Assembly: GCA_963807405.1 (NCBI GenBank)
Contig: CAWEBU010000006.1
Location: 1,511,733 to 1,575,732 of the forward strand
Source of the DNA: an uncultured Acidobacteriota bacterium
GTDB lineage: Bacteria; Acidobacteriota; Vicinamibacteria; Vicinamibacterales; UBA2999
Length of the DNA: 64,000 nt
Reading direction: 5' to 3'
Numbering within the stretch: the stretch's first letter is position 1; every line of letters begins with the position of its first letter. The position numbers and the translations under genes were made by a program. This document shows positions 3,771-60,274 of the stretch, piece after piece. Below the pieces are notes generated by a model. That model did no database searches. It was not told the origin of the DNA and was given only the letters and a program-made list of their open reading frames with translations.

Positions 3771-5487
3771 CTAGTAGGCCGACAGCAGCGCCGCCGCCGA
3801 CGGGAAGCGCGGTGCGATGTCCACCGGCACGTCCTTCAGCCTGTCGAGCACCTTCTGTGTCTCGGGCCGGATGACGCCGAGGGTCTCGAGCATCGTTCTT
3901 GGCCGCCGCGTAGTCGCCGACGGCCTGCATCGTCATGATGTCGCGCGCGAGCGCGGCGACGGCCTCGCGGATCCTGCCCGGCACGACCGCGAAGGTGCCG
4001 TCGGCGTTCACGGTGAAGGCCCCCTGGTCGAGCAGGTAGTTGAGCTGCACCGCCTGACCGCGCCCGTGCGCTTCGCTGATGCCGAAGCGAATCGAGCGGA
4101 AGGCCGAGGCCAGGAACGTCGTGTACATCGTGCCTTCCATCTCCTTCGGCAGCCGTCCCTTGTCGATCAGGAACTGCAGCGCGAACAGGCCGGTGATGTC
4201 CGCCTTCGCTTCCTCGACGGCACTCGACGTCTCCTTCAGCTCCTGGCGCACGGTGGTTGCCCGTCCGCCGACGGAGATGTTGTGCGGCCCGAGCCCGTGC
4301 ACGAGTTCGTGCATCAGGATGTGTGTGAAGAAGGCATCGAAGGCGACCTGGCCGCGGTCGGCCGGGGCCAGCGCCACCTGCGCGATCGGCAACAGCACGG
4401 TGTCGAACTTGGCCTGCTGGTTGTTCTTCAGCATCACCCGCTTGCTGCCCTTGGCGGCGACGACGCGCTCGTCGTTCGGCAGGTTGAAGGCCGCCGTCTG
4501 CACGCCGCGGTTGCCGTCGCCGGCCGAGAACACGGTGTTCACGACGGCGATCGGCGCCAGGCTGCCCAGCTTGGGATTGCGGTAACGCGGATCGATCGGC
4601 AGGTTGTCCTCGATCTCCTGGAGCGAGGCCGCGAACTGCTGGAGGCGCGCCGACTCGGCCTCGTCCTTGACGGTGATGAACGCCTCGAACGCCGCCTTGT
4701 AGTTGAACCACTCGTCTTCGTAGACCTCGTAGGGCCCGATCGTGGGCTCGAGTGTGGCGTCGAGCTCCATCCACTTCACGTCGCTCTCGTAGTAGTCATT
4801 CGAGAGAAACGCCGCGGCCCGCGCCTCGAGAAAGGCCTTGAGCGTCGGCTGCGCCGTGGCGTCCGCCGCCTGTCTGAGGTGCGACGCGGCCAGTGCCAGC
4901 TCCGTCTGGTACTCCAGGCTGTAGGGCACGGCCACGAATCCGCCGCCGTCGGCGCGCCGGATGGCGGTGAAGAAGCCGGTGGCGGCCTGCCGGGCCGCGC
5001 CCGTCAGCGTGCCGATCCACTGCTCGACCTCGGCCCTGGTGGCGTCGGCCGGATAGAAGTTCGCGGCGGCCGGCTTGGCGGGGACACCCGGCACGAACGG
5101 CTCGTTGTGATCGAGCCGCGACCACGGCCCCTTGTTGATGAGGAAGTAGCGCAGGCGCGCCTGGCCGCGCGCCGATTCGTCGCTGGCGAGCGCCGACAGC
5201 AGCGCCGTGTTGCCGGCCCACACCTGACGCAGGAACAGCGCGTCCATCACCTGCGCGGCGCGGATCATATGGGCCAGTGCCGTTCGCTCCGACTCCGGCA
5301 GCGCCGAGGTGTCGGCCGACAGGTCGGTCGGTGCGAAGCGGGCGGTCTGCTCGGCCAGTGCTGTCATGACCTGGTCGGTGCGCTCGGGCGCGGACCCGGC
5401 GGGCGGAGGCTCGCCAGCGCTGTTGCAGCCGGCAAGCCCGAGTGAGACGAGGGCAGCGAGGACGTACGGCGTGGTCGGTGTGGACAT
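3771..5487 (-). pseudogene. M49 (dipeptidyl-peptidase III-like) zinc peptidase lipoprotein, frame interrupted by one extra base near 3896-3897
   Basis: Start MSTPTTPYVLAALVSLGLAGC carries a lipobox. Zinc motifs are HELVH (a pentapeptide HExxH) and EEAKAD. After ...GDYAAAK the ORF-track frame becomes Arg/Pro junk. The +1 frame instead reads TMLETLGVIRPETQKVLDRLKDVPVDIAPRFPSAAALLSAY and ends at TAG (3773-3771). Confidence 0.75.
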
Positions 5488-5519
5488 GGGCTGGTGGGGG
5501 CGAACGGCCCGGACATGGG

Positions 5520-6077
5520 TCAGTGGACGCCGGGGCTGCCGAGAAGATGGGCGGGGTCGGAGCCGAGCCGGGCGATCGCCTGATCCCACATCCGCTCGGG
5601 CTGACTGCCGAAGATGAGGTCGGCGCCGACCGGTGCCATCAGCCAGGACGCCTGCGCCAGCTCCTCGTCGAGTTGCCCCGGCTCCCATCCGGCGTAGCCA
5701 ACGACCACCCGCACGTCGCTGGCCGGCGGCGACTGCAGCGCCGCGCGCAAGGCCGTCGGCGACGCCGTCAGGTAGACCCCGTCGGCGACTTCGGTGGCGT
5801 CGGCGTCGAGCGACGGCCGCGAGGTGAGCACCCAGGCCCGCCGCTGATCGACCGGACCGCCCGTGAAGAGGAAGACGTCATCTCGAATCGACACCGCCGG
5901 CACGGTCTCCACCACCTCGTTGGCGGGCCTCTCCATCGGCCGGTTGACGACCAGCCCGAAGGCGCCCTCGGGACCGTAGGCGCACAGCAGCACCACCGTC
6001 CGTTCGAAGTTCGGATCGGCCAGTTGCGGCATCGAGATGAGCATCAACGGGGCGATGGAGGATGCGTCATCGGACAT
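5520..6077 (-). CDS. YqgE/AlgH family protein (UPF0301)
   Basis: 185 aa. LMLISMPQLADPNFERTVVLLCAYGPEGAFGLVVNRP is the family hallmark. Confidence 0.85.
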   Translation of the reverse strand: MSDDASSIAPLMLISMPQLADPNFERTVVLLCAYGPEGAFGLVVNRPMERPANEVVETVPAVSIRDDVFLFTGGPVDQRRAWVLTSRPSLDADATEVADGVYLTASPTALRAALQSPPASDVRVVVGYAGWEPGQLDEELAQASWLMAPVGADLIFGSQPERMWDQAIARLGSDPAHLLGSPGVH

Positions 6078-6124
6078 GACTCCATCCTACTCCAGCCCCT
6101 CCCGACTGCGCGTATAGTGCAGCC

Positions 6125-8179: not shown

Positions 8180-8192
8180 CGTCTGGCGGCGG

Positions 8193-9503: not shown

Positions 9504-12182
9504 CTACTTCTTCGCCACCAGCTGGCGCAGGACGTAGGGCAGGATGCCGCCGTGGCTGTAGGCCGCCAGCTCCTCCGGCGTGTCGATCCGGCAGATCGCC
9601 TCGAAGGACTTGACGCCGCCGGCCGCCGCCGTGGCCGTCACCGTGACGCGCGCCCGCGCCTTGAGGGCCGCGCCGGCGCCGGTCAGCGCGAACGTCTCGC
9701 GGCCATTGAGGCCGAGCGACGCGGCCGACTCGCCGTCCTGGAACTGCAGCGGCAGCACCCCCATGTTGACCAGGTTGCTGCGGTGGATGCGCTCGTAGCT
9801 CTCGGCGATGACCGCCTTCACGCCGAGCAGCATCGTCCCCTTGGCGGCCCAGTCGCGCGACGAGCCCGAGCCGTACTCCTTGCCCGCCAGCACGATGAGC
9901 GGCACGCCGGCTTCCTGGTACTTCATCGCGGCGTCGTAGATCGACATGATGTCGCCGCCGGGCAGCAGGGCCGTGACGCCGCCCTCGACGCCGGGCACCA
10001 GCTGGTTCTTGATGCGCGTATTGGCGAACGTGCCGCGCATCATCACCTCGTGGTTGCCGCGCCGGGCCCCGTAGGAGTTGAAGTCCTTGGGCGCCACGCC
10101 GTGCTCGACGAGGTACTTGCCGGCCGGGCTGTCGGCCTTGATGTTGCCGGCCGGTGAGATGTGATCGGTGGTGATGCTGTCGCCGAGCAGGGCGAGCACG
10201 CGGGCGCCGCTGATGTCGGTCAGGGGCGCCGGCTGCATCGAGAGGTTCTCGAGGAACGGCGGCCGTCGCACGTAGGTGGAATCCGCCTCCCAGTTGAAGC
10301 GGTCGCCGGTCGGCACCGGCAGGCCGCGCCAGCGCTCGTCGCCCTCGAACACGTGCGCGTACTGCGAGATGAAGGCCTGCGACGTCACGCTGGCGGCCAT
10401 CGCCGCGGCGATCTCGGTGTCGGTCGGCCAGATGTCCTTCAGGTAGACCGGCGTGCCGTCGGTGCCGGTGCCGAGGGGCTCGGTCGTCAGGTCGAGGTTC
10501 ATCGTGCCGGCAATCGCGTAGGCCACGACCAGCGGCGGCGAGGCCAGGTAGTTGGCGCGCACGTCCTGCTGGATGCGGCCCTCGAAGTTGCGGTTGCCGG
10601 ACAGGACCGAGGCCACGACCAGGCCGCGCTCGCGGATCTCGGCCGACACGTCCTCGGGCAGCGGCCCTGAGTTGCCGATGCAGGTCGTGCAGCCGTAGCC
10701 GACCAGGTTGAAGCCGATCTTGTCGAGCCAGGTGTCGAGCCCGGCCGACCGCAGGTACTCGGTGACCACCTTCGACCCGGGGGCGAGCGACGTCTTCACC
10801 CACGGCTTGCGGGTCAGGCCGCGCTCGACCGCCTTCTTCGCCACCAGCCCGGCGCCGATCATCACGCCCGGGTTCGACGTGTTGGTGCAGCTCGTGATGG
10901 CCGCGATGACGACCGACCCGTGTTCGAGCTGGGTGGCGGTCGCCACGGCCGTCCCGCCGCCGGCCGCCACCTTGACGCCCTTCCTGAGCTCGTCGAGCGA
11001 GCCGGCAAACGACGTCTTGGCGTCGCTGAGCGGCACGCGGTCCTGCGGACGGCGCGGACCGGCCAGGCTCGGCACGATGGTCGCGAGATCGAGCTCGAGC
11101 CCTTCGGAGTAGATGGCGTCCGGCGTCGACTCGGTGCGGAAGAGGCCCTGCGCCTTCGCGTAGGCCTCGACGAGTGCCACCTGATCGGCGGAACGGCCCG
11201 TGAGGCGGAGATAGTCGAGCGTCAGCTCGTCGATCGGGAAGATCGCCACCGTGGCGCCGTACTCCGGGCACATGTTGCCGAGCGTGACGCGGTCGGCGAT
11301 GGTGAGATGGCCGAGGCCGGGGCCGTAGAACTCGACGAACTTGCCGACCACCTTGTGCTTGCGCAGCGCCTCGGTGATCGTGAGCACCAGATCCGTCGCC
11401 GTGGCGCCCTCGGGCAGCTGGCCGGTGAGCCGGCAGCCGACCACCGGCGGAATCAGCATCGAGCTCGGCTGGCCGAGCATCGCCGCCTCGGCTTCGATGC
11501 CGCCCACGCCCCAGCCGACGACGCCGAGCCCGTTGACCATCGTCGTGTGCGAGTCGGTGCCGAAGCAGGTGTCCGGATAGAGCACGCCGCCTTCGTTGCA
11601 GACGACGCGCGCGAGGTACTCGATGTTCACCTGGTGGACGATGCCGGTCTCGGGCGGCACCACGCGGAAGTTCTCGAAGGCGTTCTGCCCCCAGCGCAGG
11701 AACACATAGCGCTCGCGGTTGCGCTGGTACTCGAGCTCGGCGTTCAGACCAACGGCATTCGCGGTGCCGAAGTGGTCGACCTGCACCGAGTGGTCGATGA
11801 CCAGCTCCACCGGCTGCAGCGGATTGACGCGGGCCGGGTCGCCGCCCGAGGGCGGCGATGCCGTCGCGCATGGCGGCCAGATCGACGACGCAGGGCACGC
11901 CGGTGAAGTCCTGCAGGATCACGCGCGCCGGCATGAACGAGATCTCCTTGTCGGCGTTGACCGCCGCCGGGTTCCAGCCGGCCAGGGCGCGGATGTCGTC
12001 GGCCTTCACGAAGGCGCTCGTCCTCGCGGCGCAGCAGGTTCTCGAGCAGGATCTTCAGCGAGAACGGCAGGCGCTCCACCGAGGGGAAGGCGCCGGCCAG
12101 CGCGGGCAGGCTGAAGTAGTCGTACGGACTGGTCCGCAAGACGCAGGGACATCCGGGTGCTGAACGAGTTGTGGCTGGACAT
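9504..12182 (-). pseudogene. acnA: Aconitate hydratase AcnA, frame interrupted by three single-base insertions in the first ~340 nt (gene probably functional, insertions likely consensus errors)
   Basis: The body ORF 9504..11810 is unmistakable aconitase ([44 protein letters not shown]). The N-terminus is readable only by changing frame. MSSHNSFSTRMSLRLADQS runs from ATG 12182. It is followed by [37 protein letters not shown], then [56 protein letters not shown], then [19 protein letters not shown]. Confidence 0.9.
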
Positions 12183-12376
12183 GATCCCGGGAATTCTAAC
12201 AGGTGGCGCCGCGCCTGCGGTCGCCAACGGGCAGCGAGCGTCCGCGGCCGGACACCGCGCCGCCACCGGCTGCCGTGGCGGCGCCGCCGCTGCCGGTGTT
12301 TGCGGCGGGATCTCGCCGCGCCGGATGGCCACGCCGCGCCGCCGCCGCTGGCACGGAATTGGTAAGCACGCAGGGC

Positions 12377-14813
12377 ATGCGCGACGTCCTGCTCGGGTTC
12401 CGCACCCTCGGCCGCCGTCCTGGCCTGGCCGCCGCGGCGATCGCCTCGATCGCTCTCGGCATCGGGGCCTCGACCGCCATCTTACGGCGTGGTGCGGCAC
12501 GTTCTGCTCACGCCTCTGCCCTACGCGGCGCCGGAACGCCTGGTCATGCTGTGGGAGACCGCGCCCGACAACCCGGCCCGCTGGGTGGCTCCAGCCAACT
12601 ACCTCGACTGGCGGCGCGACCTGGCGCCGGACGTCGAGTCGATGGCCGCCTTCGACAGCGTCTCGCTCACCCTCACGGGCGCCGGCGAGCCCGAGCGCCT
12701 GCGCGGCGTGTCGGCCTCGGGCACCTTCTTCGCGACGCTCGGGCAGCCGGTGGCCGAGGGGCGCGCGCTCGTGCCCGACGACGATGCTCCCGGCGCGCCG
12801 TGCGTGGCGGTGCTGAGCGCCGGCCTGCGCGCCCGTCGCTTCCCCGGCGCCGTGCTCGGCCTGCCGCTCGTCCTCGACGGACAGCCCTGCACCGTCGTCG
12901 GCGTGCTGCCCGACGCCTTCCGCTTCCCCCTGCAACCGCGCGCCGAGATCTGGACCAGCGGCGATCGCGGCGTGCCGCGATCGTTCCCCTTCCCCGGCGA
13001 CATCACCACCGTCCGCGACGCGCACCTGCTGTTCGTCATCGCCCGCCTCAAGGACGGCGTCGCGCACGAAACCGCCGAAGCCCGGCTGCAGACCGTGGCG
13101 ACACAGCTCGCCGACGCCTATCCGGACACCAACAGCGGCCTCGGGGCGCGCGTGATGTCCCTGCACGAGGCCGTGGTCGGCGATGTGCGCGGCGTGCTGT
13201 GGCTGCTGCAGGCCGGCGTGCTCGTCCTGCTGCTCGTGGCGGCCGCCAATGTCGCGCACCTGCTCATCGGCCGGGCGGCGAGCCGCCGGCACGAACTCGC
13301 CGTGCGGGTGTCGCTCGGCGCCGGCCGGCGCCATCTCACCCACCAGATGCTCGGCGAGGCTCTCGCCTTCGCCTTGCCCGGCGGAGTGCTCGGGGTGCTG
13401 CTGGCGGCCTGGGGTGTCGACCTGCTGGTGGCGCTGGCCCCAGCCGGGCTGCCGCGGGTGCAGGAGATCGTCCTCGATGGCGGCGTGCTCGCCGCCGCCG
13501 CCGCGCTCACGCTGATGACGACGCTGGTGGTCGCGCTGGCGCCGCTGGCCGGCGCCGGCCTGCCGCCGGCCGCGGCGCTGCAGTCGGGAGGGGTGAGGCT
13601 CGTCGGCCGCGGTGGCGAGCGGCGCTGGCACCGCGGACTGGTGGTGGCGGAACTGGCGCTGGCGCAGGTCGTCGTCGTGGGCGCGTGGTTGCTCGCGACG
13701 AGTCTGGCGGCCGCCACCAACGTCGAACTCGGCTACGACACCGAGCGCCGGGTGGCCGCCGAACTGACCCTGGCGCCCGACCGCTACTCGCAGCCCGCTG
13801 ACGGCCAGGCGGGGGCGGCACCGATTGCCCGCTTCGTCGGCGCCGTACTCGACGACGTCGGCCGCGCTCCGGGCGTCAGAGCGGCGTCGGCTGCCTTCAC
13901 CGCGCCGCTGTCCGGCGCGCCCAATCGCGGCGTGCGTATCGTCGGCCATCCCGAGCCGGCCAGGGGCCAGGAGCCGGACGCGGACTTCCAGGTGGTCACG
14001 CCCGGCTTCTTCGAGACGCTCGGCATCAGGCTCAGCACCGGACGCTTCCTCGCCAGCACCGACGCTGAGGGCGCGCCCGACGTCGTGGTCGTCAACGAGG
14101 CCTTCGCGGCGCGTCATTTCCCCGGGACCACGGCACTCGGCCGCATCATCGAGTTCGGGCGGGCCCGCCACGAGATCGTCGGCGTCGTCGCCGACACGCG
14201 CTACCGGCGCGTGGAAACCCCGCCCTACCCCACCTTCTACGTGCCGCTGGCCCAGAGCGACGAGGCGTGGCCGTTCCTGGCCTTCATCGTCTGGGCCGAC
14301 GCGGACCCGGCGGTGGTGACGGCCGCACTGCGCGCGGCGGTCAGCCGGGTCGATCCGGCGCAGCCGATCTCCTCGGTGCGCACACTCGAGGCGACCGTCT
14401 CCGACGCCCTGGCGGGGCGGCGCTTCAACGCCGCGCTGTTCACGCTGTTCGCACTCGTCACGATGGTGCTGGCCGTGGTCGGCGCCTACGGCGTGACGGC
14501 GGCGCTCACCGCGGCGCGGGCGCGCGAGTTCAGCATCCGCGCCGCCCTCGGCGCGTCTGGCGGACGGCTGCGGGCGACCATCGTGGCGGATGCCGCCCTC
14601 CTGGCTCTCGTGGCATCGGCCGCCGGCCTCGCCATCGCCTGGCTTGGCGGCCGCGCCCTCGACGGGCTGCTCTTCGGCGTGACCGCACGCGATCCCTGGC
14701 TGCTGACCGCGGCGGCGGTGACCGTCACGGTGGCGGCACTGGCCGCCGCCGGCCCCTCCGCCTGGCGCGCCGGTCGCACGACGCCGATGGACGCGCTGCG
14801 CCTCGACGGGTGA
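12377..14813 (+). pseudogene. ADOP-family / MacB-like duplicated FtsX permease (orphan, no adjacent ATPase), one extra base at 12482-12483
   Basis: ATG 12377 gives MRDVLLGFRTLGRRPGLAAAAIASIALGIGASTAI. The frame then shifts by +1 into ORF 12489..14813 (GVVRHVLLTPLPYAAPERLVMLWE...). It has two FtsX-type 4-TM modules with large periplasmic loops. Confidence 0.8.
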
Positions 14814-28825: not shown

Positions 28826-29777
28826 TCATCGTGGGCCCGGCGTGACGCGAATGGCCAGCGCCGCCCAGCCGCCAGTCCCGGAGGGACTCGAGTAGCGCGC
28901 ATCGTTCAGGTGGACGAGCGTGCCGGCCGGCGTCGTGTCGATGACGAAGAAGGGGAACCGTGACCAGGTGAGGAACTGGCGCCCGCCCTCGGTCCTTGCC
29001 GCCGCCTGCGCCGCCGGATCGCCGGCGTGGATGTCCACACCGTAGCCGGCGGAGCGAAAGCTCGGCCGTGGCGCGAAGGTCACGAAGCCCTTGTCGTAGC
29101 GGTCGCCGAGATCGACGAGGACCTCGCGCCGGAAGGGATTGACGGCCACCGGAGTCACCATGAACCGCGCGCCGGCCTGGCCGGCTGTGGCGAGCACGTC
29201 GGCCACGACCGCCCGCGCCCACAGGTTCGAGGCGAACATGGCGCCGATGTAGAGCGCCGCCACGACCAGCGCGGCGGCCGCGCGTCTTCGTGCGACTGCC
29301 GGGACTGGCGCCCGGGCGGCCGCCCACACGCCGGCCCCGAGGACGAGGTAGAGCCACGGGTCGACGATGTAGAGCGCATCGCCGTAGAACCAGCGCTCCG
29401 AGAACGGCATGAGCAGGCGGATGCCGTAGCTGTTCATGTAGTCGAGCAGCGGATGCGACCAGGTGGCGAGGGCGGCCAGCAGCAGCACCTGGCGGGGCAC
29501 CACCGGTGGCGGCGGCGCCGGCCGCCGCTGGCGCACCAGACGGTCGTAGGCCACGACGAGTGCCGTCGAGCGCCACCGGCAGCAGGAGCATGGCCGGCGG
29601 GCCGTGGGTCCAGCCGCGGCGGAAGTAGACGGCCAGCGTGTCGGTGGCCACGACGGCGATGTCGATGTCCGGCGCGTTGGCCGCCAGGACCAGTGTCGGG
29701 AGCGCGAGCGGCGTCCGGTACTTCAGGCCGGCGTGCCCCATGGCAAGGCCGGTCAACGCGTGGCAGAGGTTGTCCAT
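28826..29777 (-). pseudogene. YdjM-like membrane-bound metal-dependent hydrolase, one extra base around 29565-29580
   Basis: ATG 29777 gives MDNLCHALTGLAMGHAGLKYR...RRGWTHGPPAMLLLPV, a YdjM/DUF457-type N-terminus. The sequence then continues in ORF 28826..29554 (...TALVVAYDRLV...SHPLLDYMNSYGIRLLMPFSERWFYGDALYIVDPWL). Confidence 0.65.
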
Positions 29778-29781: not shown

Positions 29782-31492
29782 CTACCCGGCGGCCAGGTCG
29801 CGCAGGTCTTTCCGCAGCACCTTGCCGACCGGCGATTTCGGCAGGTCGTCACGGAAGTGGACGGTCTTCGGCACCTTGTAGGCGGAGAGCGATTGCCGGC
29901 AGTGGTCGCGCAAGATCTGTTCGGTCAGCGCCGGGTCCTTGCGCACGATGAAGGCGCAGACGATCTCACCCGCCGTGGCGTCCGGCCGGCCGATGACCGC
30001 AACCTCGGCCACGCCGGGATGCGCCGCCAGCACCGCTTCGACTTCGTTCGGGTAGACGTTGAAGCCGCTCACGAGAATCATGTCCTTCTTGCGGTCGACG
30101 ATGTAGAGGTAGCCGTCGCCATCGACGGTGGCGATGTCGCCGGTGGAGAGCCAGCCGTCACGCAGCACGCGGGCGGTCTCGTCGGGCCGGTCCCAGTAGC
30201 CGGGCATCACCTGCGGTCCCTTGACGAGCAGTTCGCCAGGCTCGCCGTCGGGCACGTCCTGCCCGTCCGCATCGACGATGCGGATGTCGGTGCCGGGCAC
30301 CGGGGTGCCGATCGACTCGCGCTTGTTGCGGTGAAACGGCACGAGCGACACGACCGGCGACGTCTCGGTCAGCCCGTAGCCCTGATAGATCGGCGTCTTC
30401 GTCATCGCTTCCCAGCGGTCGCCGACGCTCGGCAGGAGCGCCATGCCACCGGCCACCGTGCCCTTGAACGAGAAGCCGGTGTGCGCCTTGAACCACGGCT
30501 CGTGCATCAGCCCCGCGAAGAGCGTGTTCACGCCGGTGAGCCAGGTGGCACCTTCGGTCGTGAGCGCCGCCTTGAGATTGACGAGGGGACGGGGGCTGGG
30601 GATGAGGATGTTGCGTCCACCGAAGGCGAAGAACACCATCAGGTTCGCCGTGAACGCGAAGATATGGTACAGCGGCAGCGCGGTCACGACGGATTCCCGA
30701 CCCTCGATGACGCCCGGCTTCCACACTTCGATGCACTGCGCGATGTTGGCGAGCAGGTTGCCCTCGGTGAGCACCGCCCCCTTGCTGACGCCGGTCGTGC
30801 CACCGGTGTACTGCAGGGTGGCCACGCGGTCCTCGGTTGCGCCGAGGAGGTAGACGGCAGGGTCGGCGCCGGAGGCGAGTTTGCGGCGGCCGGCGGCGAG
30901 CGCCGTCTCGAAGGTGGTGTGGTCGAACGTCACCGCCGGCACCTGCTTCTTGACGTACTTCTGCACCGCGCGTACGAGCGTGCCGCGTGAGAAACGGCAT
31001 GAGGTCGGCAATGGTCACGACGACGACGGTCCTGATGGCGGTCCTCGGCAGGACCTGCGCCACCTTGTCGGCGAACAGGTCGATGACCACGAGGCCGGTC
31101 GCCCCGCTGTCGGCGAACTGGTGTTCCATCTCCGGCGCGGTGTAGAGCGGGTTGGTGTTGACCGTGACGAGGCCGGCCTTCATCGCCCCGAACACCACGA
31201 TGGGATAGGCCAGGCAGTTGGGCATCTGCACGGCGAGACGGTCGCCGGCGGCGAAGCCCGCGACCTCGCGCAGATAGACGGCAAAGACGTCCGAGAGCCG
31301 ATCGACTTCCGCGAAGGTCAGGGTGCCGCGACTGCCGTTCGGCAGCAGCAGGGTGAACGCCTCGTTCGAGGCGTACCTGGCGGCCGCGTCACGGACCAGC
31401 GCCGCGACCGTCTGCCACGGACGAGGTGGCAGGTCCTGCGCGGTGACCGGCGCATAGAATCGGGTCCAGGGTCTGGTGGCAAGGTCCGGCAT
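29782..31492 (-). pseudogene. fadD: Long-chain fatty acid-CoA ligase (FadD-like), one extra base around 30985-30995
   Basis: The N-terminal half lies in ORF 30158..31591, from ATG 31492: MPDLATRPWTRFY...VVVVTIADLMPF. The C-terminal half lies in ORF 29782..31011: RGTLVRAVQKYVKKQVP...LQYTGGTTGVSKGA (AMP-binding motif)...GYGLTETSP...GEIV...KSPVGKVLRKDLR. Confidence 0.85.
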
Positions 31493-31603
31493 GCGCGTGG
31501 CAGTCGTCGTCAGCGCATTGTAATGAAGTCCGCTCCGCCGACCGAAAGATCGGCGAGCCCCCCAGTCACGCCCGAGGCACCAACCTTGCATTGCTCTTCA
31601 CCC

Positions 31604-32479: not shown

Positions 32480-32554
32480 GCAGCGCGGCGCTCTCCCCCG
32501 CGCCGTGCTTGGCCCTGGCACGCGGCCCCCTGCCGCGTGCGGCTGCCGCCAGTG

Positions 32555-32825
32555 TCAGACAGCTGGTGCGTCCGGCCGGTCGGCATCGCATCTCCAGCAG
32601 CGGTCGAACTGCCCCTCGATCGCTTCGCCGCACGCGCTACACGTCCACGCGCGCGCTGGCATGGACCGGCCCGTCGAAGATCCAATCCAGCACCGGCACC
32701 GGCTGCGGCGCCGCCTGCAGCGGCTCCGGGCCCAGAACCGCGAGGCCGAGCGCGGCAACGCTGGCCAGACGCCGCAGGTATTGCCGGAGGCCAGTACGGG
32801 GAGCCGCAAGCTGCATCAGCGGCAT
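32555..32825 (-). pseudogene. Small zinc-ribbon protein (W-x-C-x2-CGE...F-x2-CW-x-C), possibly with a signal-like N-terminus; one extra base near 32645-32652
   Basis: The C-terminal frame reads (W)TCSACGEAIEGQFDRCWRCDADRPDAPAV. The upstream frame from ATG 32825 reads MPLMQLAAPRTGLRQYLRRLASVAALGLAVLG...HASAR and stops 1 nt out of phase. The link between the two halves is inference. Confidence 0.3.
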
Positions 32826-32900
32826 TTTACGGGACAGCGGAATCCTCGTTGAGGAGATCACCTGCGAGCAGGCGGCCGAGTCAGTGATAGCCCGCCGCAT

Positions 32901-33091
32901 TATTACAATTTGGTAAGCGTCTTAAAATACGTGCTCGTTTCACACCGATAGATGCACTTCAGCTCATCTCTCCATCTTTGAATTGCATCTTCGGCCACAG
33001 ATCGTGCACAATCTGCCTGCGACGCGACGAACGCCAGTCGGGTCAACTGCCACTCAGTGGTTTCACCAAAGGAATAGGGAGAGTTGCTGCC
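32901..33091 (+). promoter_or_regulatory. AT-rich upstream region of the type III GS gene (probable promoter / 5' leader)
   Basis: Locally very low GC for this genome (attattacaatttggtaagcgtcttaaaatacg...ttgaattgcatcttcgg). Candidate boxes are TTGCAT-18nt-CACAAT. There is an 11-bp palindrome CCACTCAGTGG at 33050-33060 and an SD GGGAGAG 8 nt before ATG 33092. I recognised no sigma-54, NtcA or glutamine-riboswitch consensus. Confidence 0.3.
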
Positions 33092-35270
33092 ATGGGATCA
33101 GACACGCTGAGCGCCGCCATCGACCACATGCGCCGTTGGGCCATGCACGAGGGCCGAGCCGTCCACGAGCCCGCGCAGGTGGGCGAGATCTTCGGATCGC
33201 TGGTCTTCAACGACGCCGTGCAGCAGGCGCGGCTCCCGAAGGCGGTCTGGCAGGCGCTCCGCGATACGGTCACCAAGGGCACGCCGCTCGAGATGTCGGC
33301 CGCCGACGCGGTGGCGTCCGCCCTCAAGGACTGGGCCGTCGAGCACGGGGCCTCGCACTACACGCACTGGTTCCAGCCGATGACCGGCATCACGGCCGAG
33401 AAGCACGACTCGTTCTACTCGCCCACCGGCGATGGCCGCTCGATGGCCGAGTTCAGCGGCAAGGAACTGGTGCGCGGCGAGCCCGACGCGTCGAGCTTCC
33501 CGTCGGGCGGCATGCGCAGCACGTTCGAGGCCCGCGGCTACACCGCCTGGGACCCGACCAGCCCGCCGTGGCTGCTCGTCACCGGCAACTCGGCCACGCT
33601 CGTCATTCCGACCGCGTTCGTCAGCTGGACCGGCGAGTCGCTCGACAAGAAGACGCCGCTCCTGCGTTCGATGGAAGCGCTCTCGACGCAGGCCGTCCGC
33701 GCGCTCAGGCTGTTCGGCGTGCCGGCCTCGCGCGTCACCGCCACCTGCGGCCCCGAGCAGGAGTACTTCCTGATCGACCGCCACTTCTATTACAACCGGC
33801 CCGACCTCATCAACGCCGGCCGGACGCTGTTCGGCGCGCGGCCGCCGAAGGGACAGGAGCTCGAGGATCAGGTACTTCGGCTCGATCCCCGAACGCGTGC
33901 TCGCCTTCATGGCCGAAGTCGAGACCGAGCTCTACAAGGTCGGCGTGCCGATCAAGACGCGCCACAACGAGGTGGCGCCGTCGCAGTACGAGCTGGCGCC
34001 GATCTTCGAGAGCATGAACGTGGCCACCGATCATCAGATGATGACGATGGAGACGCTCAAGCGCATCGCGCCGAAGTACGGCCTGGCCTGCCTGACCCAC
34101 GAGAAGCCGTTCGCCGGCGTCAACGGCTCGGGCAAGCACGTCAACTGGAGCATGAGCGACGACCTCGGCAACAACCTGCTCAACCCGGGCGCGACGCCGC
34201 ACGACAACATGCAGTTCCTGTTCTTCTGCACGGCCGTCGTCCGCGCGGTCGACACGTTCCAGGGCCTGCTGCGGATGAGCATCGCCAGCGCCGGCAACGA
34301 TCACCGGCTGGGCGCCAACGAGGCGCCCCCGGCGATCCTGTCGATCTTCCTCGGCGACATGCTGACCGAGGTGCTCGAGCAGGTCGAGAACGGCGGCCCC
34401 AAGTCGAGCCGGCACGGCGGCGTGCTCGACATCGGCGTCTCGGTGCTGCCGAAGCTGCCGCGCGATGCCGGCGACCGCAACCGTACCTCGCCCTTTGCCT
34501 TCACCGGCAACAAGTTCGAGTTCCGCGCGGTGTCGGCCAACCAGAGCATCGCCTTCCCGTCGACCTGCCTCAACGTGGCGGTCTCGGAATCGCTCGACTT
34601 CATGTGCGCCCAGCTCGAAGGCGCGCTCGCCAAGGGCGAGGGCCTGGAGGAGGCCGTCGCCTCGCTGCTGAAGGCGACCCTGAAGAAGCACAAGCGGATC
34701 ATCTTCAATGGCAACGGCTACGCGATGGAGTGGCAGAAGGAGGCCACCAAGCGCGGGCTGCTCAACCACAAGAACACGGTGGACGCGCTGCCCGAGATCA
34801 CCTCGGATCTGGTGGTCAAGACGTTCGAGAAGTTCAAGGTCCTCACCGGCCGCGAACTGCACGCCCGCTACGAGGTCAACGTCGAGGCCTACAACAAGAC
34901 CATCAACGTCGAGGCGCAGCTCATGGTGCTGATGGCCAACCGGTTCATCCTGCCGGCCGCGCTGGAGTATCAGCGCGCCGTGGCGGCCAGCGTGACGGCC
35001 GTCAAGCAGGCCGGCGGCACCAGCCGCGAGGGCAAGAAGCTGCTCAGCAAGCTGGTCAAGCTGGTCGACCAGTTCCGCGCGCAGACCGACGTCCTCGCCG
35101 GGGCGCTCGATCACAGCGCTCCCAGCGCCGAGAAGCACGCGAAGTACATGCGCGACAAGGTCGTGCCGGCGATGGTGCGGCTCCGTGAGCTGGGCGATCA
35201 GCTGGAGGTCGTGGCACCGCACGGCACCTGGCCGCTGCCGACCTACCGGGAGATGCTCTTCATCAAGTAG
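33092..35270 (+). pseudogene. glnN: Type III glutamine synthetase (GlnN-type), one extra base at 33871-33872
   Basis: The N-terminal part lies in ORF 32978..35188, from ATG 33092: ...[14 protein letters not shown]...[11 protein letters not shown]...[10 protein letters not shown]. The rest lies in ORF 33897..35270: (YFGSIPER)[35 protein letters not shown]...[10 protein letters not shown]. Removing one g from caGGtac restores a 725-codon frame. Confidence 0.9.
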
Positions 35271-45724: not shown

Positions 45725-47818
<2,094 letters not shown>

Positions 47819-52476: not shown

Positions 52477-53344
52477 ATGCGCATCGGCATCGTCACCAAG
52501 CCCGACCTCGCGGACGCTCGCGACACCCTCAACCAGCTCCGTGCCTGGCTGGCGGCACGCGGGGCCACCGCCTGCTGGTCGCCGGAAGCGGCGGCGCTGC
52601 TCACCGACCCGCCCGACGCCATCGTCTCGCGCGACGACATCCCGGACCTGGTCGATGTGGTGGTCGTGCTCGGGGGCGACGGCACGCTCATCGCGATGGC
52701 CGCACGGATCGCCCGCGGCAAGGGCGACGTGCCGATTCTCGGCGTCAACTTCGGCAGTCTGGGCTTTCTCACCGAGATCACACGCCCCGAACTGTTCGAC
52801 GCGCTGGCCGACGTGCTCGACGGGCGGGCGTCGCTCGACGAGCGCATGATGCTGACCGCGCGGGTCGATCGCGCGGGCGCGGCGCCCTACGAGACCACGG
52901 TCCTGAACGACGTGGTGTTCACGCGCACCGCCCTGTCCCGCATCATCGACCTCTCGGTGTGGGTCGGCGGGCAGTTCGTCACCGACGTCAAGGCCGACGG
53001 TCTGATCGTGGCCAGCCCGACCGGGTCGACCGCCTACAACCTGGCGGCCGGCGGCCCGATCGTGCACCCCGCCATGGAGGCGTTCATCCTGACGCCGATT
53101 GCCCCCCACACCTTGAGCAACCGGCCGATCGTCGTCCCCGCTCACCGCGACGTGCGCGTGGCCGTCAGTGCCGACAACGGCGGCGAGGTCTACGTGACCT
53201 TCGACGGCCAGACCGGGAGCCCGCTGCAGCACCGGCGACGAAGTGATCATCCGCCGCGCCCCGCGCGATGTGAAGCTCGTGCGCGCGACCACACGCACCT
53301 ACTTCGAGGTGCTGCGCCAGAAACTCAAGTGGGGCGAACGCTGA
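52477..53344 (+). pseudogene. nadK: NAD kinase, C-terminal 37 codons out of frame because of one extra base near 53230-53235
   Basis: GGDGT and NFGSLGFL motifs are present. After ...FDGQTGSPLQ the track frame turns into Arg-rich junk running to 53403. The +1 frame instead reads GDEVIIRRAPRDVKLVRATTRTYFEVLRQKLKWGER and stops at 53342-53344. Confidence 0.9.
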
Positions 53345-53386
53345 GACCGCGGCGACGGCCGGCGCGCACGAACAAAGGGAGATGGA

Positions 53387-53920: not shown

Positions 53921-53924
53921 CGCT

Positions 53925-55413: not shown

Positions 55414-55446
55414 GCGAGAATTATAGCTGGCGGTCGGCCGGCGGCC

Positions 55447-55779: not shown

Positions 55780-55800
55780 CGGCAAAGTGTATCCTTCGCA

Positions 55801-57003
55801 GTGATGCCGAGGAAATCCCGCGCCGGGCTCGTCCTGTTGGCGGCGCTGTACGCCGCCACGGTCGACGCGCAGACACCGCCGCTCGGCTCGCTGCAGGAGC
55901 GGCCGCCCGGCGCCACGAACCCGCCGACGCCGCTCTCGCGCGATGACGCGACGGCCCTGGCGGCTCGCGCCGCCGATCGCATCCGGGCGCTCCAGCGCGA
56001 GTCGGACGCCCTGGCGGCTCGCTCGCGCACCGTCCTCACCGAGCTCAGGCAACTGGAAGTGACGCGCGCCCTGCGCCGGGAGGAACTGGCCGCGGTCAAT
56101 GCCCGCCTGGCGACGGTCTCCGAGAAGGTCGCCGCGTCCAGCGCGCGGGTGGCCGAACTCGAGCGCCAGCGCGTCGCGCGGACACCGGCGCTCGAAGCGC
56201 GTCTCGAAGCGCTCTACAAGCGCGGCGGCAGCGACGGCTACGTCCGGCTGCTGCTGGCGACGGCGGCCGGCCGCGATCTGGCCCGCGCCAGCCGCGGCGT
56301 GGTGGCGCTGGCCCGCGTCGAGGAACTCCGCATCGCCGCCCATCGCACGCTGCTGGCCGACGAACGAGCGGCGCGCGATCAGCTGGCGTCGGAGGAACGG
56401 CAGGTGGCACGGCTGCGGGCCGAGGCTGCCACGCTCGACCAGGCCGCCCGGCGCGCCGTCGCCGATCGCACCCGGCTCCTCGATGACCTCGATACGCGAC
56501 GCGAGTTGGCGGCGGAGTATCTCGGCGAACTCGACCAGGCGCGGGCGCGACTCCAGGCCACCCTGGCCGGGCTGGCGACGAGCGGCCCGGTCGACCTGCC
56601 GCTCAAGCCCTTCCAGGGCGAGCTGGCCTGGCCGGTCCGCGGGTCCCTACTGTCCCGCTTCGGACGGGCGGCGCGCGAGGACGGCGCGGCCGTCCAGAGG
56701 AACGGCATCGAGATCGGCACCCCGATCGGCACGCCGGTGCACGCCGTACACGGCGGGACGGTGGCCTATGCGGCCCCCTTCACCGGCTTCGGGGTGCTGG
56801 TCATCCTCGACCACGGCAAAGACACCTTCACGGTCTACGGGCACCTGGCGGGCACGGCGCTGCGACCCGGCGCCGCCCTGGCGCGCGGCCAGGCCGTGGG
56901 CGCGTCCGGGGCCAGCCCGACCGGCGTGCCGGCCGCCTACTTCGAGGTGCGCATCGACGGCCGTCCCGTCAATCCCCTACAATGGTTGACGACCACGCCA
57001 TGA
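55801..57003 (+). CDS. M23 family peptidase with N-terminal coiled coil (EnvC-like murein hydrolase activator)
   Basis: A signal peptide, long Ala/Arg/Glu/Leu coiled-coil segments, and a C-terminal LytM domain (GIEIGTPIGTPVHAVHGGTV...VILDHG...TVYGHL). ATG 55804 is an alternative start. Confidence 0.8.
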   Translation: MMPRKSRAGLVLLAALYAATVDAQTPPLGSLQERPPGATNPPTPLSRDDATALAARAADRIRALQRESDALAARSRTVLTELRQLEVTRALRREELAAVNARLATVSEKVAASSARVAELERQRVARTPALEARLEALYKRGGSDGYVRLLLATAAGRDLARASRGVVALARVEELRIAAHRTLLADERAARDQLASEERQVARLRAEAATLDQAARRAVADRTRLLDDLDTRRELAAEYLGELDQARARLQATLAGLATSGPVDLPLKPFQGELAWPVRGSLLSRFGRAAREDGAAVQRNGIEIGTPIGTPVHAVHGGTVAYAAPFTGFGVLVILDHGKDTFTVYGHLAGTALRPGAALARGQAVGASGASPTGVPAAYFEVRIDGRPVNPLQWLTTTP

Positions 57004-58170
57004 CGCCCCGCCTACGCGCCGCCGTCCTCGCTGTCTCCCTGCCGGTCCTGGCCTTCGCGGTCATCGGCGGGTTCCTCGGCCGCGACGCCGCCGCCCAGGG
57101 CGGTAGCTATCCGCACCTGAAGATCTTCGAGGACGTGGTCACGCTCATCCTCAACAACTACGTGGAAGCGGTCGACGTCGACAAGGTGATGCACGGCGCG
57201 ATGCACGGGCTGGCCGACGGCCTCGATCCCGATTCCGCCTATCTCGACCCGAAGCAGATGCAGGCGGTCAACGCGTCCACGGCCGGCCTGGCCGATCCCG
57301 GTCTCGAACTGACCCGCCAGTCCTACCTGCGCGTCATCGCCGCCCGCGACGGCTCGCCCGCCGCCAAGGCCGGCCTCAGGCCGGGCGACTACGTGCGCTC
57401 GATCGACGGCCAGTCGACCCGCGACACGACCGTGTTCGAGGGCATGCGCCTGCTGCGCGGCAAGGCCGGCACCACGGTCACGCTGACGATTCTGCGCGGC
57501 AACGCCGCCGAACCTCATGAGGTCGAACTGGCGCGCGTGGCACCGCAGGCGCTGACGCCCACGGGCCGGAGCCTCGGCAGCGCCACCGGCTACCTCCGCG
57601 TGCCTGCGTTCTCGCCTGCCACGGCCGGTCGAGATCCGGAGCGAAGTGAACGATCTGACCAAGGCCGGCGCCGAGCGCGTCGTCATCGACCTGCGCGGCA
57701 CGGCCAGCGGCGATCTCGATCTCGGCTACGACGCGGCGCGGCTGTTCGTGCCCTCGGGCGTGCTCGGCTATCGCCAGGCCCGCGGCAAGGACAAGGAGCC
57801 GGTGTCGGCGGGTGCCGGCGACGGCAGCCTGTCCCTGCCGGTCGTCGTGCTGACCGACAACGGCACCTCGGGTGCCGCCGAGGTGTTCGCCGCGGCGCTG
57901 TCCGGGAACAAGCGCGCCAGCCTGGTCGGCGAGCGCAGCGTCGGTCGCGCCGGCCGTCAGAAGGTCGTCACGCTCCCCGACGGCTCCGGGCTGCTCCTCA
58001 CCCACCTGCTTTACCTGGGCCCCGGCGGCGCCTCGCTCCACGAGCGCGGCGTGACGCCCGACGTGGCGGTCGACACGCCGACGGCGGACTTCGGCGTCGA
58101 GCCCGCGCCTGGCGATCCGGCGCTCGACAAGGCCGTCGAAACGCTCACCGCGGCGAAGAAGGCGGCCTGA
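57000..58170 (+). pseudogene. S41 family C-terminal processing peptidase, one extra base near 57623-57628
   Basis: ATG 57000 forms an ATGA overlap with the M23 stop. The PDZ region (GLELTRQ...IAARDGSPAAKAGLRPGDYVRSIDG) runs up to ...GYLRVPAFSPATA. The +1 frame (ORF 57646..58170) then continues VEIRSEVNDLTKAGAERVVIDLRGTASGD...LTDNGTSGAAEVFAAAL. Confidence 0.8.
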
Positions 58171-58236
58171 GCGGTCGCCCGCTCAGCCGTGGCAGTGCTA
58201 TACTGCTCGCTCCCGTAAGGCCGGGCGAACGCATAT

Positions 58237-58313
58237 AGGCGCGTAGCTCAGCTGGTTAGAGCGCCTGCTTGACACGCAGGAGGTCGGCAGTTCGAGTCTG
58301 CCCGTGCCTACCA
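58237..58313 (+). tRNA. tRNA-Val (anticodon GAC), CCA encoded
   Basis: Hand-folded cloverleaf. Acceptor aggcgcg/cgtgcct (one G-U pair), D stem gctc/gagc, anticodon stem cctgc/gcagg with loop ttGACac, T arm ggcag-ttcgagt-ctgcc, discriminator a, then cca. Length 77 nt. Confidence 0.9.
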
Positions 58314-58347
58314 TTCGACTCGGCCTTCCGGCGAAGAACCCCACCTC

Positions 58348-60274
58348 ATGATCACGGTCACCCTTCCTGACGGCTCCAGCCGGCAGGTGGCTGCCGGCAC
58401 GCCGGCCGCCGCCATCGCGGCCGACATCTCACCGCGCCTTGCACAGGCGGCCCTGGCCGCCGTCGTCGACGATCAGCTCGTCGATCTCGGCCTATCCGCT
58501 CGACAAGGACGCCCGCGTCCGCATCGTGACCGACAAGAGCCCGGAGGCGCTGGCGCTGTCCCGGCACTCGACGGCGCACCTGATGGCGGCGGCGGTGACG
58601 GCCCTCTTCCCCGGCGCCCAGTGCGGCATCGGCCCGGCCATCGACGAGGGCTACTTCTACGACTTCGTGGTGCCGCAGCCGTTCGTGCCGGAGGATCTCG
58701 AGCGCATCGAAGCGAAGATGCGCGAGCTGGCGGCGCAGGACCTCGTCTACGAGCGGCAGATGTGGCCGCGCGACGAGGCGCTGGCGTTCTTCGCACAGCG
58801 CGGCGAACCGCTCAAGGTGCAGCTGATCGAAGAGAAGACGGCCGGCCAGAGTCACGTCTCCTGCTACACGATCAAGGACCGCGACACGTTCGTCGATTTC
58901 TGTGTCGGCCCGCACGTGCCGTCGACCGGCCGGCTCAAGGCCTTCAAGCTGACCTCGACGTCGAACGCCTACTGGAAGGGCGACGCCAAGGGTCAGCCGA
59001 TGCAGCGCCTGTACGGCACGGCGTTCCTGGCGCAGAAGGACCTCGACCAGCACCTGATGCGCCTCGAGGAGGCCAAGAAGCGCGACCACCGCAAGGTGGG
59101 CAAGGAGCTCGGGCTCTTCACGTTCCACCACTGGGCGCCGGGCGCCACGTTCTGGCTGGCCAAGGGCGCCACCCTCTACAACACGCTCGCCGACTACATG
59201 CGCTCGCGGCTCTTCCCGGCCGGCTACGTCGAGGTGAAGACGCCAATCATCTACAACAAGGGGTTGTGGGAGACCTCGGGTCACTGGTCGCACTACCGCG
59301 AGAACATGTTCCTCGTCGACTCGAAGGACGGCGAGGCGATGGCCCTGAAGGCGATGAACTGCCCGGGGCACATGCTGGTCTTCGCGGGCGAGAAGCGCAG
59401 CTACAAGGACCTGCCGCTGCGCCTGCACGAGCAGACGCCGCTGCACCGCAACGAAGCCTCGGGCGTGCTCGCGGGCCTGACCCGCGTGCGCCAGTTCTCG
59501 CAGGACGACGGGCACTGTTTCGTGGCCGAGAACCAGATCGCCGCGGAAGTCGAAGCGCTGCTCAAGCTGGTCCAGGGGATTTACCGCGACTTCGGCCTCG
59601 ACTACACGGCCAAGCTCGCCACGCGGCCCGAGAAGTTCCTGGGCGAGATCGCGACGTGGGACGCGGCCGAGGCGGCCCTCCGCCAGGCCCTCGACAACGC
59701 CGGCCAGCCCTACCTGCTCGAGGCCGGTGAAGGCGCGTTCTACGGGCCGAAGATCGACTTCGACATCACCGACGCGCTGGGACGGAAGTGGCAGTGCGGC
59801 ACCATCCAGCTCGACTACCAGATGCCCGCCCGGTTCGAGCTCTCCTACGTGGGCCCGGACAACGCCCCGCACATGCCGGTGGTGATCCACCGTGCCATCT
59901 TCGGCAGTTTCGAACGCTTCATCGGCATCCTGATCGAGCACTTCGCCGGGGCATTCCCCCTGTGGCTGGCGCCGCTGCAAGTGGCGGTGCTCCCCATCAC
60001 CGACCGCGCCAATCCCTACGCCCGGGAGGTGCTCGGTGCGCTGCAGGCCGCCGGCCTGCGGGCGGTGCTCGACGAACGCCCCGAGAAGGTCAACTACAAG
60101 ATTCGCGAAGCCCAGCTCCAGAAAGTGCCCTATATGCTCGTCATTGGCGACCGTGAGGCGGCCGATCGGGCCGTGGCGGTGCGCAGCCGGTCGAAGGGCG
60201 ACCTTGGAGCCACCCCGCTCGCCACGTTCGTGGCGGAAGCCCTTGCCGAGGTTGCCGAGAAACGGCTATCCTAA
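58348..60274 (+). pseudogene. thrS: Threonine-tRNA ligase, one extra base at 58488-58491 (likely consensus error)
   Basis: The TGS-domain N-terminus MITVTLPDGSSRQV...AAVVDDQLVDL lies in ORF 58348... The sequence then continues in the +1 frame (ORF 58439..60274): YPLDKDARVRIVTDKSPEALALSRHSTAHLMA..., followed by class II motifs and the anticodon-binding domain. Confidence 0.95.

Follow-up and report, generated by a model that had tools for sequence, protein, structure and literature searches.

The closest described counterparts of the sequence analysed here are the MFD metagenome-assembled genomes (MAGs), which were obtained from Nanopore reads only (R10.4.1), assembled with Flye and polished by one round of Medaka, without short-read polishing (PMC12313526). 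Their authors acknowledge residual Nanopore-associated errors at lower coverage and describe metagenomic Flye contigs as population consensuses (PMC12313526). In general, the indel rate of long-read-only assemblies varies with depth (bioRxiv 10.1101/2024.01.12.575342). An insertion bias of the Flye/Medaka consensus is reported in neither of these papers (PMC12313526; bioRxiv 10.1101/2024.01.12.575342). Nanopore basecalling errors are also documented at methylation motifs, where they consist mostly of substitutions of G for A and T for C (bioRxiv 10.1101/2024.01.12.575342). Finally, genes whose conserved N- and C-terminal parts are offset by +1 occur in prfB-type programmed +1 frameshifting and in the transcriptional slippage of endosymbionts. 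Transcriptional slippage typically occurs at a long homopolymeric tract of at least 7-9 A or T.

In this work, we consider a stretch of 64,000 nucleotides (the window, by which we mean the whole stretch that was analysed) from a contig of an uncultured Vicinamibacterales bacterium, in which conserved genes are split by such +1 offsets.

Single-base offsets in ten conserved genes

Offset sites were found by tblastn, pinned by scoring every candidate deletion, and verified in DNA alignments. Searching the ORFs of relatives against the window in this way yielded 12 single-base frame offsets across 10 conserved genes, each of them +1, at positions 0-5 nt from those proposed in the initial annotation. 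The affected genes are about 10 of the approximately 55 that the window contains, i.e. about one fifth are split, and the density is about 19 indels per 100 kb. The initial annotation had counted 13 insertions in 11 genes; all of these stood except one in a Zn-ribbon mini-ORF, which is included in the following list for completeness.

3771..5487, minus strand: M49 (DPP-III-like) peptidase; insertion at about 3895 (anywhere within 3893-3899 is permissible), reading gaa[C]gat on the gene strand
9504..12182, minus strand: acnA (aconitate hydratase); three insertions: tcc[G]tac at 12125, gag[C]gcc at 12016, and gg to ggg at 11844-11848
12377..14813, plus strand: ADOP/FtsX-type permease; insertion at 12482-12484 that shifts the frame from 2 to 3
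28826..29777, minus strand: YdjM-like membrane protein whose C-terminal extension is conserved; insertion at 29567-29568, gct[C]gac
29782..31492, minus strand: fadD-like AMP-binding enzyme; insertion at 30982-30984, cgc[G]gca
32555..32921, minus strand: claimed Zn-ribbon frameshift region; outside the phenomenon
33092..35270, plus strand: glnN (type III glutamine synthetase); extra G at 33871-33872, AGTACT to AGGTACT, frame 2 to 3
45725..47639, minus strand: dnaK; extra G (gene strand) at 47309-47310, AGTACT to AGGTACT, frame -3 to -1
52477..53344, plus strand: nadK (NAD kinase); insertion at 53229-53231 that shifts the frame from 1 to 2
56982..58170, plus strand: S41 (C-terminal processing) peptidase; insertion at 57623-57632 that shifts the frame from 3 to 1
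58348..60274, plus strand: thrS (threonyl-tRNA synthetase); insertion at 58488-58490 that shifts the frame from 1 to 2

The offsets are best seen by following an orthologous protein along the window. On the plus strand, the match to the ADOP permease of locus L004 runs in frame 2 over residues 39-88, as far as 12481, and resumes at 12483 in frame 3 for residues 89-864; the DNA alignment also places the extra base there. GlnN of L084 matches in frame 2 up to residue 260 and in frame 3 from residue 260 to 725, the extra G being visible in the DNA alignment with L084 and L085, and NadK of L002 matches in frame 1 over residues 1-251 and in frame 2 over residues 247-288, in which eight metagenome relatives concur. 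More than 20 relatives of the S41 peptidase change frame at 57623-57632, by +1 in each case, and for thrS neighbouring residues of about 49 relatives fall into frames 1 and 2, offset by 1 nt. On the minus strand, the N-terminal part of the M49 peptidase lies in frame -2 and its final approximately 42 codons in frame -3; the ORFs of about 20 relatives change frame at 3898/3899, again by +1 in each. The acnA gene passes successively through frames -3, -1, -2 and -3. Its shifts at about 11841 and 12013 are backed by more than 45 relatives, and in the DNA alignment with L004 and L044 the relatives have three gaps of one base each. The YdjM-like protein of L084 matches in frame -3 for residues 1-70, down to 29568, and in frame -1 for residues 71-170, from 29566 on, and the shift in the fadD-like gene appears both in tblastn with the L084 protein and in the DNA alignment. 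In dnaK, DNA alignment with L001, L002 and L003 gives caGgtact in the window against ca-gtact in the relatives; the zero-frame fragment has 208 aa.

When one base is removed per site, ten complete ORFs without internal stops result, whose lengths are those of the orthologues: M49 peptidase, 571 aa; AcnA, 891 aa, with full-length matches in 80 genomes; ADOP permease, 811 aa; YdjM-like protein, 316 aa; fadD-like enzyme, 569 aa; GlnN, 725 aa, the length in essentially all relatives; DnaK, 637 aa, 95% identical to the relatives' full-length DnaK; NadK, 288 aa, as in L002; S41 peptidase, 395 aa; and ThrRS, 641 aa. The initial annotation had noted that genes expected to be indispensable are among those hit, and the alignments with relatives confirm the frameshifts in dnaK, thrS, nadK and acnA. 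These four genes are normally indispensable.

The uniform direction claimed at the outset also held: 12 of 12 offsets are +1 in tblastn and DNA alignments (p = 0.0005), and no -1 shift was found in the window. Likewise, the reported lack of in-frame nonsense mutations agrees with the ten repaired ORFs; these, together with a codon-usage Viterbi pass, revealed neither nonsense mutations nor deletions nor large lesions in the window. The same pass detected no further within-gene frame switch. Between 14.8 and 27 kb, where relatives give no coverage, no split Pfam domains were found, all being full length and in a single frame. A candidate second shift in the fadD-like gene, near 31495, was rejected on inspection of the 5' end, where the true start Met lies downstream of that point.

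The Zn-ribbon frameshift proposed at 32645-32652 was not supported. In the six-frame view the CxxC...CxxC motif lies entirely within one frame, in a self-contained 35-codon ORF (MPARAWTCSACGEAIEGQFDRCWRCDADRPDAPAV), and searches with the merged protein found, apart from the 87-aa ORF of the window itself, no homologue. The Pfam matches to zinc ribbons (DUF7577/DZR) are all sub-threshold and limited to the frame of the 35-codon ORF, and the codon-usage model treats 32447-33100 as non-coding.

Sequence context and clustering of the sites

The initial annotation described every site as a homopolymer lengthened by one base. This is false for two insertions in acnA, the G of tcc[G]tac and the C of gag[C]gcc, whose flanks are identical to those of relatives, and gaa[C]gat in the M49 peptidase and gct[C]gac in the YdjM-like gene are probably non-homopolymer insertions too. 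Four or five sites lengthen short G/C runs, and the longest run at any insertion site is GGG, homopolymers of more than 3 nt being absent there. Non-homopolymer insertions are not the textbook Nanopore error.

Comparison of the contexts found no motif common to all 12 sites. However, the palindrome AGTACT has become AGGTACT by three independent insertions, namely those in dnaK and glnN of the window and one in an efflux pump gene at position 19312 of L001; relatives retain AGTACT at all three places. The chance that at least two of 12 random insertions would fall in AGTACT is 5e-5, for a motif that was picked post hoc. The hot spot is partial, since only two of the eight AGTACT sites in the window are affected, six being intact, and since five further AGGTACT/AGTACCT heptamers in the window are genuine. 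Four of these five form the full CAGGTACT octamer, and no frame switch occurs at any of them.

As for the distribution of the sites, the claimed clustering held for 11.8-12.5 kb, where four sites fall inside 637 bp (p = 0.0017), but not for the empty stretches at 12.5-29.5 and 34-47 kb, the largest gap being unexceptional (p = 0.30).

The shifts are not conserved: at all 12 sites the orthologues have a single frame. Lesions of the same kind do occur elsewhere, at positions non-orthologous to those of the window, in related megabase-scale Flye-style Vicinamibacterales contigs and in MFD MAGs. There are five insertions in L001 (ENA ERZ25039524 contig_1647, 2.2 Mb), three plus three in L084 (GCA_964268075.1, a 1.3-Mb contig), and one each in MFD05513 and MFD05442, which are documented Nanopore MAGs; none of these has deletions. 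Pooled over the long-read loci, the window included, there are 25 insertions and no deletions. An Illumina MAG of the same clade (GCA_016789705.1, loci L002/L004), by contrast, has no frameshifts of its own over the syntenic approximately 39 kb. The collections searched contained no same-species sequence from another sample, the best matches being at 95% (DnaK) and 94% (GlnN) amino-acid identity.

Probable consensus error and its rivals

With a probability of roughly 0.93, the twelve extra bases would be consensus errors of a long-read-only Vicinamibacterales MAG and not part of the organism's DNA. The initial annotation had preferred a systematic consensus or polishing error, and this reading is supported, if indirectly, by the comparison: the nadK frameshift is in the deposited contig, the same lesion is found in other long-read assemblies, it is absent from the Illumina MAG, and the AGTACT error recurs. 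A technology-linked artefact is further indicated because essential single-copy genes are affected, nonsense and deletion lesions are absent, conservation is equal on the two sides of the shifts, and four sites are crowded into 637 bp.

We infer that the platform was a long-read one from the 3.73-Mb contig size, for an uncultured bacterium, and from the error signature. The assembly would then come from the same type of pipeline as its long-read relatives, with noisy long reads, one polishing round and no short-read correction, and its coverage was probably modest. The AGTACT hot spot could reflect a base modification at the site or a k-mer-specific bias of the basecaller or polisher. The 637-bp cluster might result from a poor local pile-up, caused by low depth, strain heterogeneity or reads of paralogous ADOP genes. 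To our knowledge, no cause has been documented for insertion-only errors in a Flye/Medaka consensus.

If the insertions were real, the genome could be undergoing massive recent pseudogenisation, through reductive evolution or in a mutator lineage. The proportion of genes affected (about 10 of about 55) would suit such a process, the deposited 3.73-Mb contig (NCBI, ENA) itself contains the nadK frameshift, and three insertions in acnA are what an already dead gene would be expected to collect. We nevertheless regard this as very improbable. The genes hit include dnaK, thrS and nadK, of which the window holds no second copies. Decaying genes should show a mixed lesion spectrum, with nonsense mutations, truncations and more deletions than insertions, whereas only +1 insertions are seen and no stops remain after repair. 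They should also show relaxed constraint downstream of the shifts, whereas identity to orthologues is the same on the two sides (glnN 96/92%, fadD 89/89%, nadK 82/81%, ADOP 72/73%) and codon bias is maintained (GC3 about 0.9). The ratio of 12 insertions to no deletions runs against the bias of spontaneous bacterial indels, which, as Mira, Ochman and Moran reportedly found in 2001, favour deletions. Moreover, the same type of lesion affects other genes in long-read assemblies and is absent from the Illumina relative, and the identical change of AGTACT to AGGTACT in two genomes is hard to account for by mutation.

Another rival is that the insertions are real in a minority of molecules, from defective strains or damaged relic DNA, and were picked up by the assembler's consensus. 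A metagenomic Flye contig is the consensus of a population (PMC12313526), and the four sites within 637 bp suggest some local trouble, such as a collapsed strain bubble. This explanation has a very slim chance of being right: selection should act strongly against a frameshifted dnaK or thrS even at low frequency, and the insertion-only spectrum and the recurrence of the AGTACT error across samples and assemblies indicate the measurement, not the population.

It is extremely improbable that the bases are truly present and that full-length DnaK, ThrRS, AcnA and the others are made through a genome-wide +1 correction by quadruplet decoding or transcript editing. A milder reading of this improbable kind is that the AGTACT hot spot would betray an unrecognised DNA modification at ScaI-type sites of these bacteria, by which insertion-type basecalling errors are provoked. 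As a rival to consensus error, correction at expression, whether by programmed +1 ribosomal frameshifting, quadruplet decoding or transcript-level removal of a single base, has a practically negligible probability: the uniform direction of the shifts would fit it, and CAGGTACT, common to three sites, is imaginable as a recoding signal, but the orthologues keep their frame across all 12 sites, which have no slippery sequence, zero-frame stop or stimulatory element in common, the zero frame continues for tens to hundreds of codons past the site, runs of at most 3 nt offer no substrate for transcriptional slippage, the five other AGGTACT/AGTACCT heptamers cause no frame switch, and clade-wide recoding would not follow the sequencing platform, as the lesions do with shifts in other genes of long-read relatives and none in the Illumina MAG. 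The alternatives that the initial annotation had left standing, pseudogenisation and recoding, are in effect excluded by the insertion-only lesions, the non-conserved shifts and the Illumina relative without lesions.

Consequences for annotation and comparison with known systems

In the organism itself the affected genes are almost certainly unbroken, and annotating them as pseudogenes is unwarranted because the extra bases are almost certainly consensus errors. Gene callers would fragment ten sound genes and pipelines would flag about ten false pseudogenes, while the true proteins would be those of the repaired ORFs. Automatic annotation thus risks reporting truncated proteins and chimeras with a wrong-frame part besides false pseudogenes. 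At least one chimera is already public: a 308-aa NadK, consisting of the N-terminus and a wrong-frame tail, occurs verbatim in a public protein collection, on a contig of 3,726,184 bp. Eight proteins of the window match this contig exactly; it is recorded at NCBI and ENA and has no protein accessions. The biological weight of these observations is low, and their value is that of an annotation warning for curators of long-read MAGs. In addition, the insertion-only bias (25:0 pooled) and the recurrence at AGTACT could serve reference-free frameshift repair or indicate a modification motif.

With prfB-type programmed frameshifting and the transcriptional slippage of endosymbionts, the window shares the +1 offset between conserved N- and C-terminal parts. 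It differs from them in that the shifts are non-conserved, fall in ten unrelated genes, and have no shift-site motif, in-frame stop or long homopolymer.

The likeness to methylation-motif errors in nanopore basecalling lies in a short palindrome, AGTACT (the ScaI site), that is affected on either strand and recurrently across independent assemblies. This is the pattern that a modified target site of a restriction-modification system would give, methylation in this organism being hypothetical. In contrast to the substitutions documented for such errors, the window has insertions, and merely two of its eight AGTACT sites are affected.

The published description of the MFD MAGs associates errors with long homopolymers and low-GC genomes (PMC12313526), whereas the window has 70% GC and runs of 1-3 nt. 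The window also departs from that description in having several non-homopolymer insertions and errors in the insertion direction only. Nevertheless, the MFD Nanopore MAGs resemble it in both setting and lesion: in them too an uncultured Acidobacteriota lineage of soil type is represented by megabase-scale contigs, and conserved genes are split by single-base indels, which in MFD05513 and MFD05442 are insertions.

Frameshift sites in the window

Frameshifts were detected by comparing the ORFs of related genomes with the window using tblastn; where successive residues of one orthologue matched in two frames, one extra base was assigned. Each site was then pinned by scoring every candidate one-base deletion against the orthologues. 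With this protein-to-DNA comparison, a check proposed in the initial annotation, 12 sites were placed within 1-5 nt each.

Frame switches in the window (found by tblastn unless otherwise stated)
3898/3899, M49 peptidase gene
~11841 and ~12013, acnA
12125, acnA, third site (DNA alignment)
12481/12483, ADOP permease gene
29566/29568, YdjM-like gene
30983-30993, minus strand, fadD-like gene
33870/33871, glnN
~47309, dnaK
53229-53231, nadK
57623-57632, S41 peptidase gene
58488-58490, thrS

Several data sets were used for comparison. The Illumina-based MAG GCA_016789705.1 contains a contig, JAEUQR010000100.1, that is syntenic with the window (loci L002 and L004). Two relatives are contigs of megabase scale that are named in the style of Flye: L001 (ENA ERZ25039524 contig_1647, 2.2 Mb) and L084 (GCA_964268075.1, 1.3 Mb). 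For acnA, we compared 80 loci from species-representative genomes, and for thrS, 80 loci from metagenomes. Same-species short-read contigs were sought as an independent check, and none above ~95% amino-acid identity was present in the collections searched. Of ten intact ORFs of the window, eight recur verbatim in a public protein collection, every one on the same 3,726,184-bp contig (NCBI and ENA) and without a protein accession. The contig of the window is thus 3.73 Mb long, a megabase size that points to a long-read assembly. The G+C content is ~70% across the 64-kb window, and the organism is an uncultured Vicinamibacterales bacterium, as judged from the repaired DnaK, which shares 95% identity with its counterparts in MAGs that carry the label Acidobacteria or Vicinamibacterales.

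All the shifts had been described as +1, and the tblastn and DNA alignments bear this out (12 of 12 in one direction, p = 0.0005). The initial annotation had counted 13 insertions in 11 genes, of which 12 sites and ten genes stand; the site that drops out is the Zn-ribbon frameshift. There, the whole CxxC...CxxC motif lies in one frame, inside a 35-codon ORF, the Pfam matches are sub-threshold and confined to that single frame, and a homologue search with the merged protein gives nothing beyond the window's own 87-aa ORF. The mini-ORF (35 codons, DUF7577-like at a sub-threshold score) lies on the minus strand within window 32480-33091 and has no detectable homologues. The intergenic region 5' of glnN is relatively AT-rich and spans ~610 nt in the window versus ~310 nt in L084.

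Other candidate signals were also rejected. A second fadD shift at ~31495, hinted at by tblastn at the 5' end of the gene, comes from an over-extended gene call in the relative, the true Met start being located downstream of this supposed shift. The ~60 nt 5' of the fadD-like start (window 31493-31560, minus strand) are near-identical to L084 8727-8760 (…GGCGGAGCGGACTTCAT…AATGCGCTGACGACGACTGCCAC…), and this non-coding stretch may act as a conserved promoter or leader. Where the all-against-all comparison seemed to show -1 events, the source was either a frameshift in a query assembly (L001, L084) or a gene boundary such as pheS/pheT or thrS/infC. A pseudo-event at 58312 arises from a conserved block just 5' of thrS, which is a tRNA gene: tRNA-Val (GAC), window 58237-58313 (plus strand), adjoins thrS upstream, is intact (69 bits) and is highly conserved in relatives. 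When the six coding frames were scanned with a Viterbi model whose codon usage was learnt from intact genes, no further within-gene frame change came up in the window, and the remaining transitions all fell at stop/start junctions. Between 14.8 and 27 kb, a region without coverage by relatives, the Pfam domains are full length and in a single frame.

Repaired genes and the origin of the insertions

When one base is deleted per site, ten complete ORFs without internal stops result: M49 (571 aa), AcnA (891), ADOP (811), YdjM-like (316), FadD (569), GlnN (725), DnaK (637), NadK (288), S41 (395) and ThrRS (641). These lengths agree with those of relatives. The YdjM-like gene (window 28826-29777, minus strand) has a conserved C-terminal extension of ~140 aa containing the motifs FMVTPVAVNPF, QFLTWSRFPFF and LNDARYS. 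A chimeric NadK, consisting of the N-terminus and a wrong-frame tail (52477-53400, 308 aa), is found verbatim in a public protein collection, on the 3.73-Mb contig, so the insertions belong to the deposited record. The result is valuable as an annotation warning.

The frameshifts are almost certainly non-biological, and in our judgement the inserted bases are very probably (a probability of about 0.93) consensus or polishing errors. The alternative, that the bases are genuine and the lesions biological, is unlikely. Bacteria can normally not dispense with DnaK, ThrRS, NAD kinase or aconitase, and no second copy of dnaK, thrS, nadK or acnA is present in the 64-kb window. After repair, the ten genes are free of nonsense codons, deletions and truncations, in line with the initial observation that in-frame nonsense mutations are absent. 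Orthologue identity is similar on either side of the shifts (before/after: glnN 96/92%, fadD 89/89%, nadK 82/81%, ADOP 72/73%), and GC3 is still ~0.9 downstream of them. Moreover, spontaneous bacterial indels lean towards deletion, and 12:0 insertions is the reverse of this bias. Recoding of genuine extra bases is likewise unlikely, since the orthologues are in frame at all sites, the sites share no common motif, the zero frame runs on through many codons without a stop, and the homopolymers at the sites are at most 3 nt long.

Sequence context and clustering

Every site had been described as a homopolymer lengthened by one base, which does not hold at two of the acnA sites: in tcc[G]tac and gag[C]gcc (gene-strand context, extra base in brackets), the flanks are identical in the Illumina locus L004 and in another relative, L044. 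The contexts gaa[C]gat in the M49 gene and gct[C]gac in the YdjM-like gene are probably also not homopolymer extensions. In all, several of the 12 insertions fall outside homopolymers. G-run extension occurs at four sites (gg to ggg in acnA; g to gg in glnN, dnaK and fadD). We found nothing specific in the literature on an insertion bias of R10.4.1/Flye/Medaka consensus sequences.

Neither GTAC nor CAGGTAC is a motif of all sites: the window contains 80 GTAC, 15 CAGTAC and 8 CAGGTAC, two of them at frameshifts. The only motif association left after these counts is the hexamer AGTACT, which in three independent events reads AGTACT in relatives and AGGTACT in the long-read assembly.

AGTACT events
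window 33869-33876, glnN
window 47305-47311, dnaK
L001 19311-19317 (insertion at 19312), RND efflux pump gene

AGTACT is a palindrome (ScaI site), and the extra base is found on it in either orientation. If 12 insertions were placed at random, two or more would hit one of the eight AGTACT sites of the window with a probability of 5e-5, for a motif picked post hoc. Because six of the eight have escaped the insertion and AGGTACT also occurs genuinely elsewhere, the hot spot is a propensity rather than a rule. Its source could be base modification at the hexamer, or a basecaller or polisher that is biased at particular k-mers.

Four of the 12 insertions lie inside 637 bp (window 11844-12484), in the stretch where the 5' ends of acnA and of the divergently oriented ADOP permease gene face each other (p = 0.0017). 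The clustering noted earlier is thus borne out here, but the empty 17-kb stretch is unremarkable (p = 0.30). The cluster suggests that reads piled up poorly at this place in the assembly, and the cause could be low depth there, a mixture of strains, or reads wrongly recruited from paralogous ADOP genes, which are multi-copy in Acidobacteriota.

Insertions in related assemblies

The earlier attribution to consensus or polishing error gains support from the other assemblies. L001 carries five insertions of its own, at 2919, 3449 (gcg[A]ccc), 4136, 15394 and 19312, and L084 carries three, at 2126, 18699 (agc[T]gcg) and 21955, with three more in its YdjM-like gene (~6000-6450) at positions where the window is intact. 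The genes broken in these two contigs encode FtsJ, polyprenyl synthase, XseB, an RND pump, an amidase, an M16 peptidase and the YdjM-like protein. Since the L084 copy of the last is frameshifted, it is annotated in two pieces, a 175-aa YdjM and a separate 85-aa ORF. All these insertions are at places non-orthologous to those in the window. In another related contig, L085 (ERZ25039510 contig_82532), a phosphoglucomutase gene (PGM_PMM I/II/III; 12946-14350) is called as four ORFs of 142, 141, 67 and 116 aa, presumably broken by the same type of indel error.

One insertion each is carried by MFD05513 (gaa[T]ccc) and MFD05442, whose names mark them as long-read MAGs of the Microflora Danica catalogue. 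Over all the long-read assemblies, the pool comes to 25 insertions against 0 deletions. Across the ~39 kb aligned with the window, the Illumina MAG shows no frameshift of its own; the events seen on it stem only from queries that are themselves frameshifted, or from gene boundaries. The Microflora Danica catalogue was built from Nanopore R10.4.1 reads with Flye and one Medaka round, without short-read polishing, and its authors report leftover Nanopore-associated errors where coverage is lower (PMC12313526). The type of lesion therefore goes with how a genome was sequenced and assembled rather than with its lineage, because the long-read relatives carry their own insertions, the Illumina MAG carries none, and the Microflora Danica MAGs are documented Nanopore assemblies.
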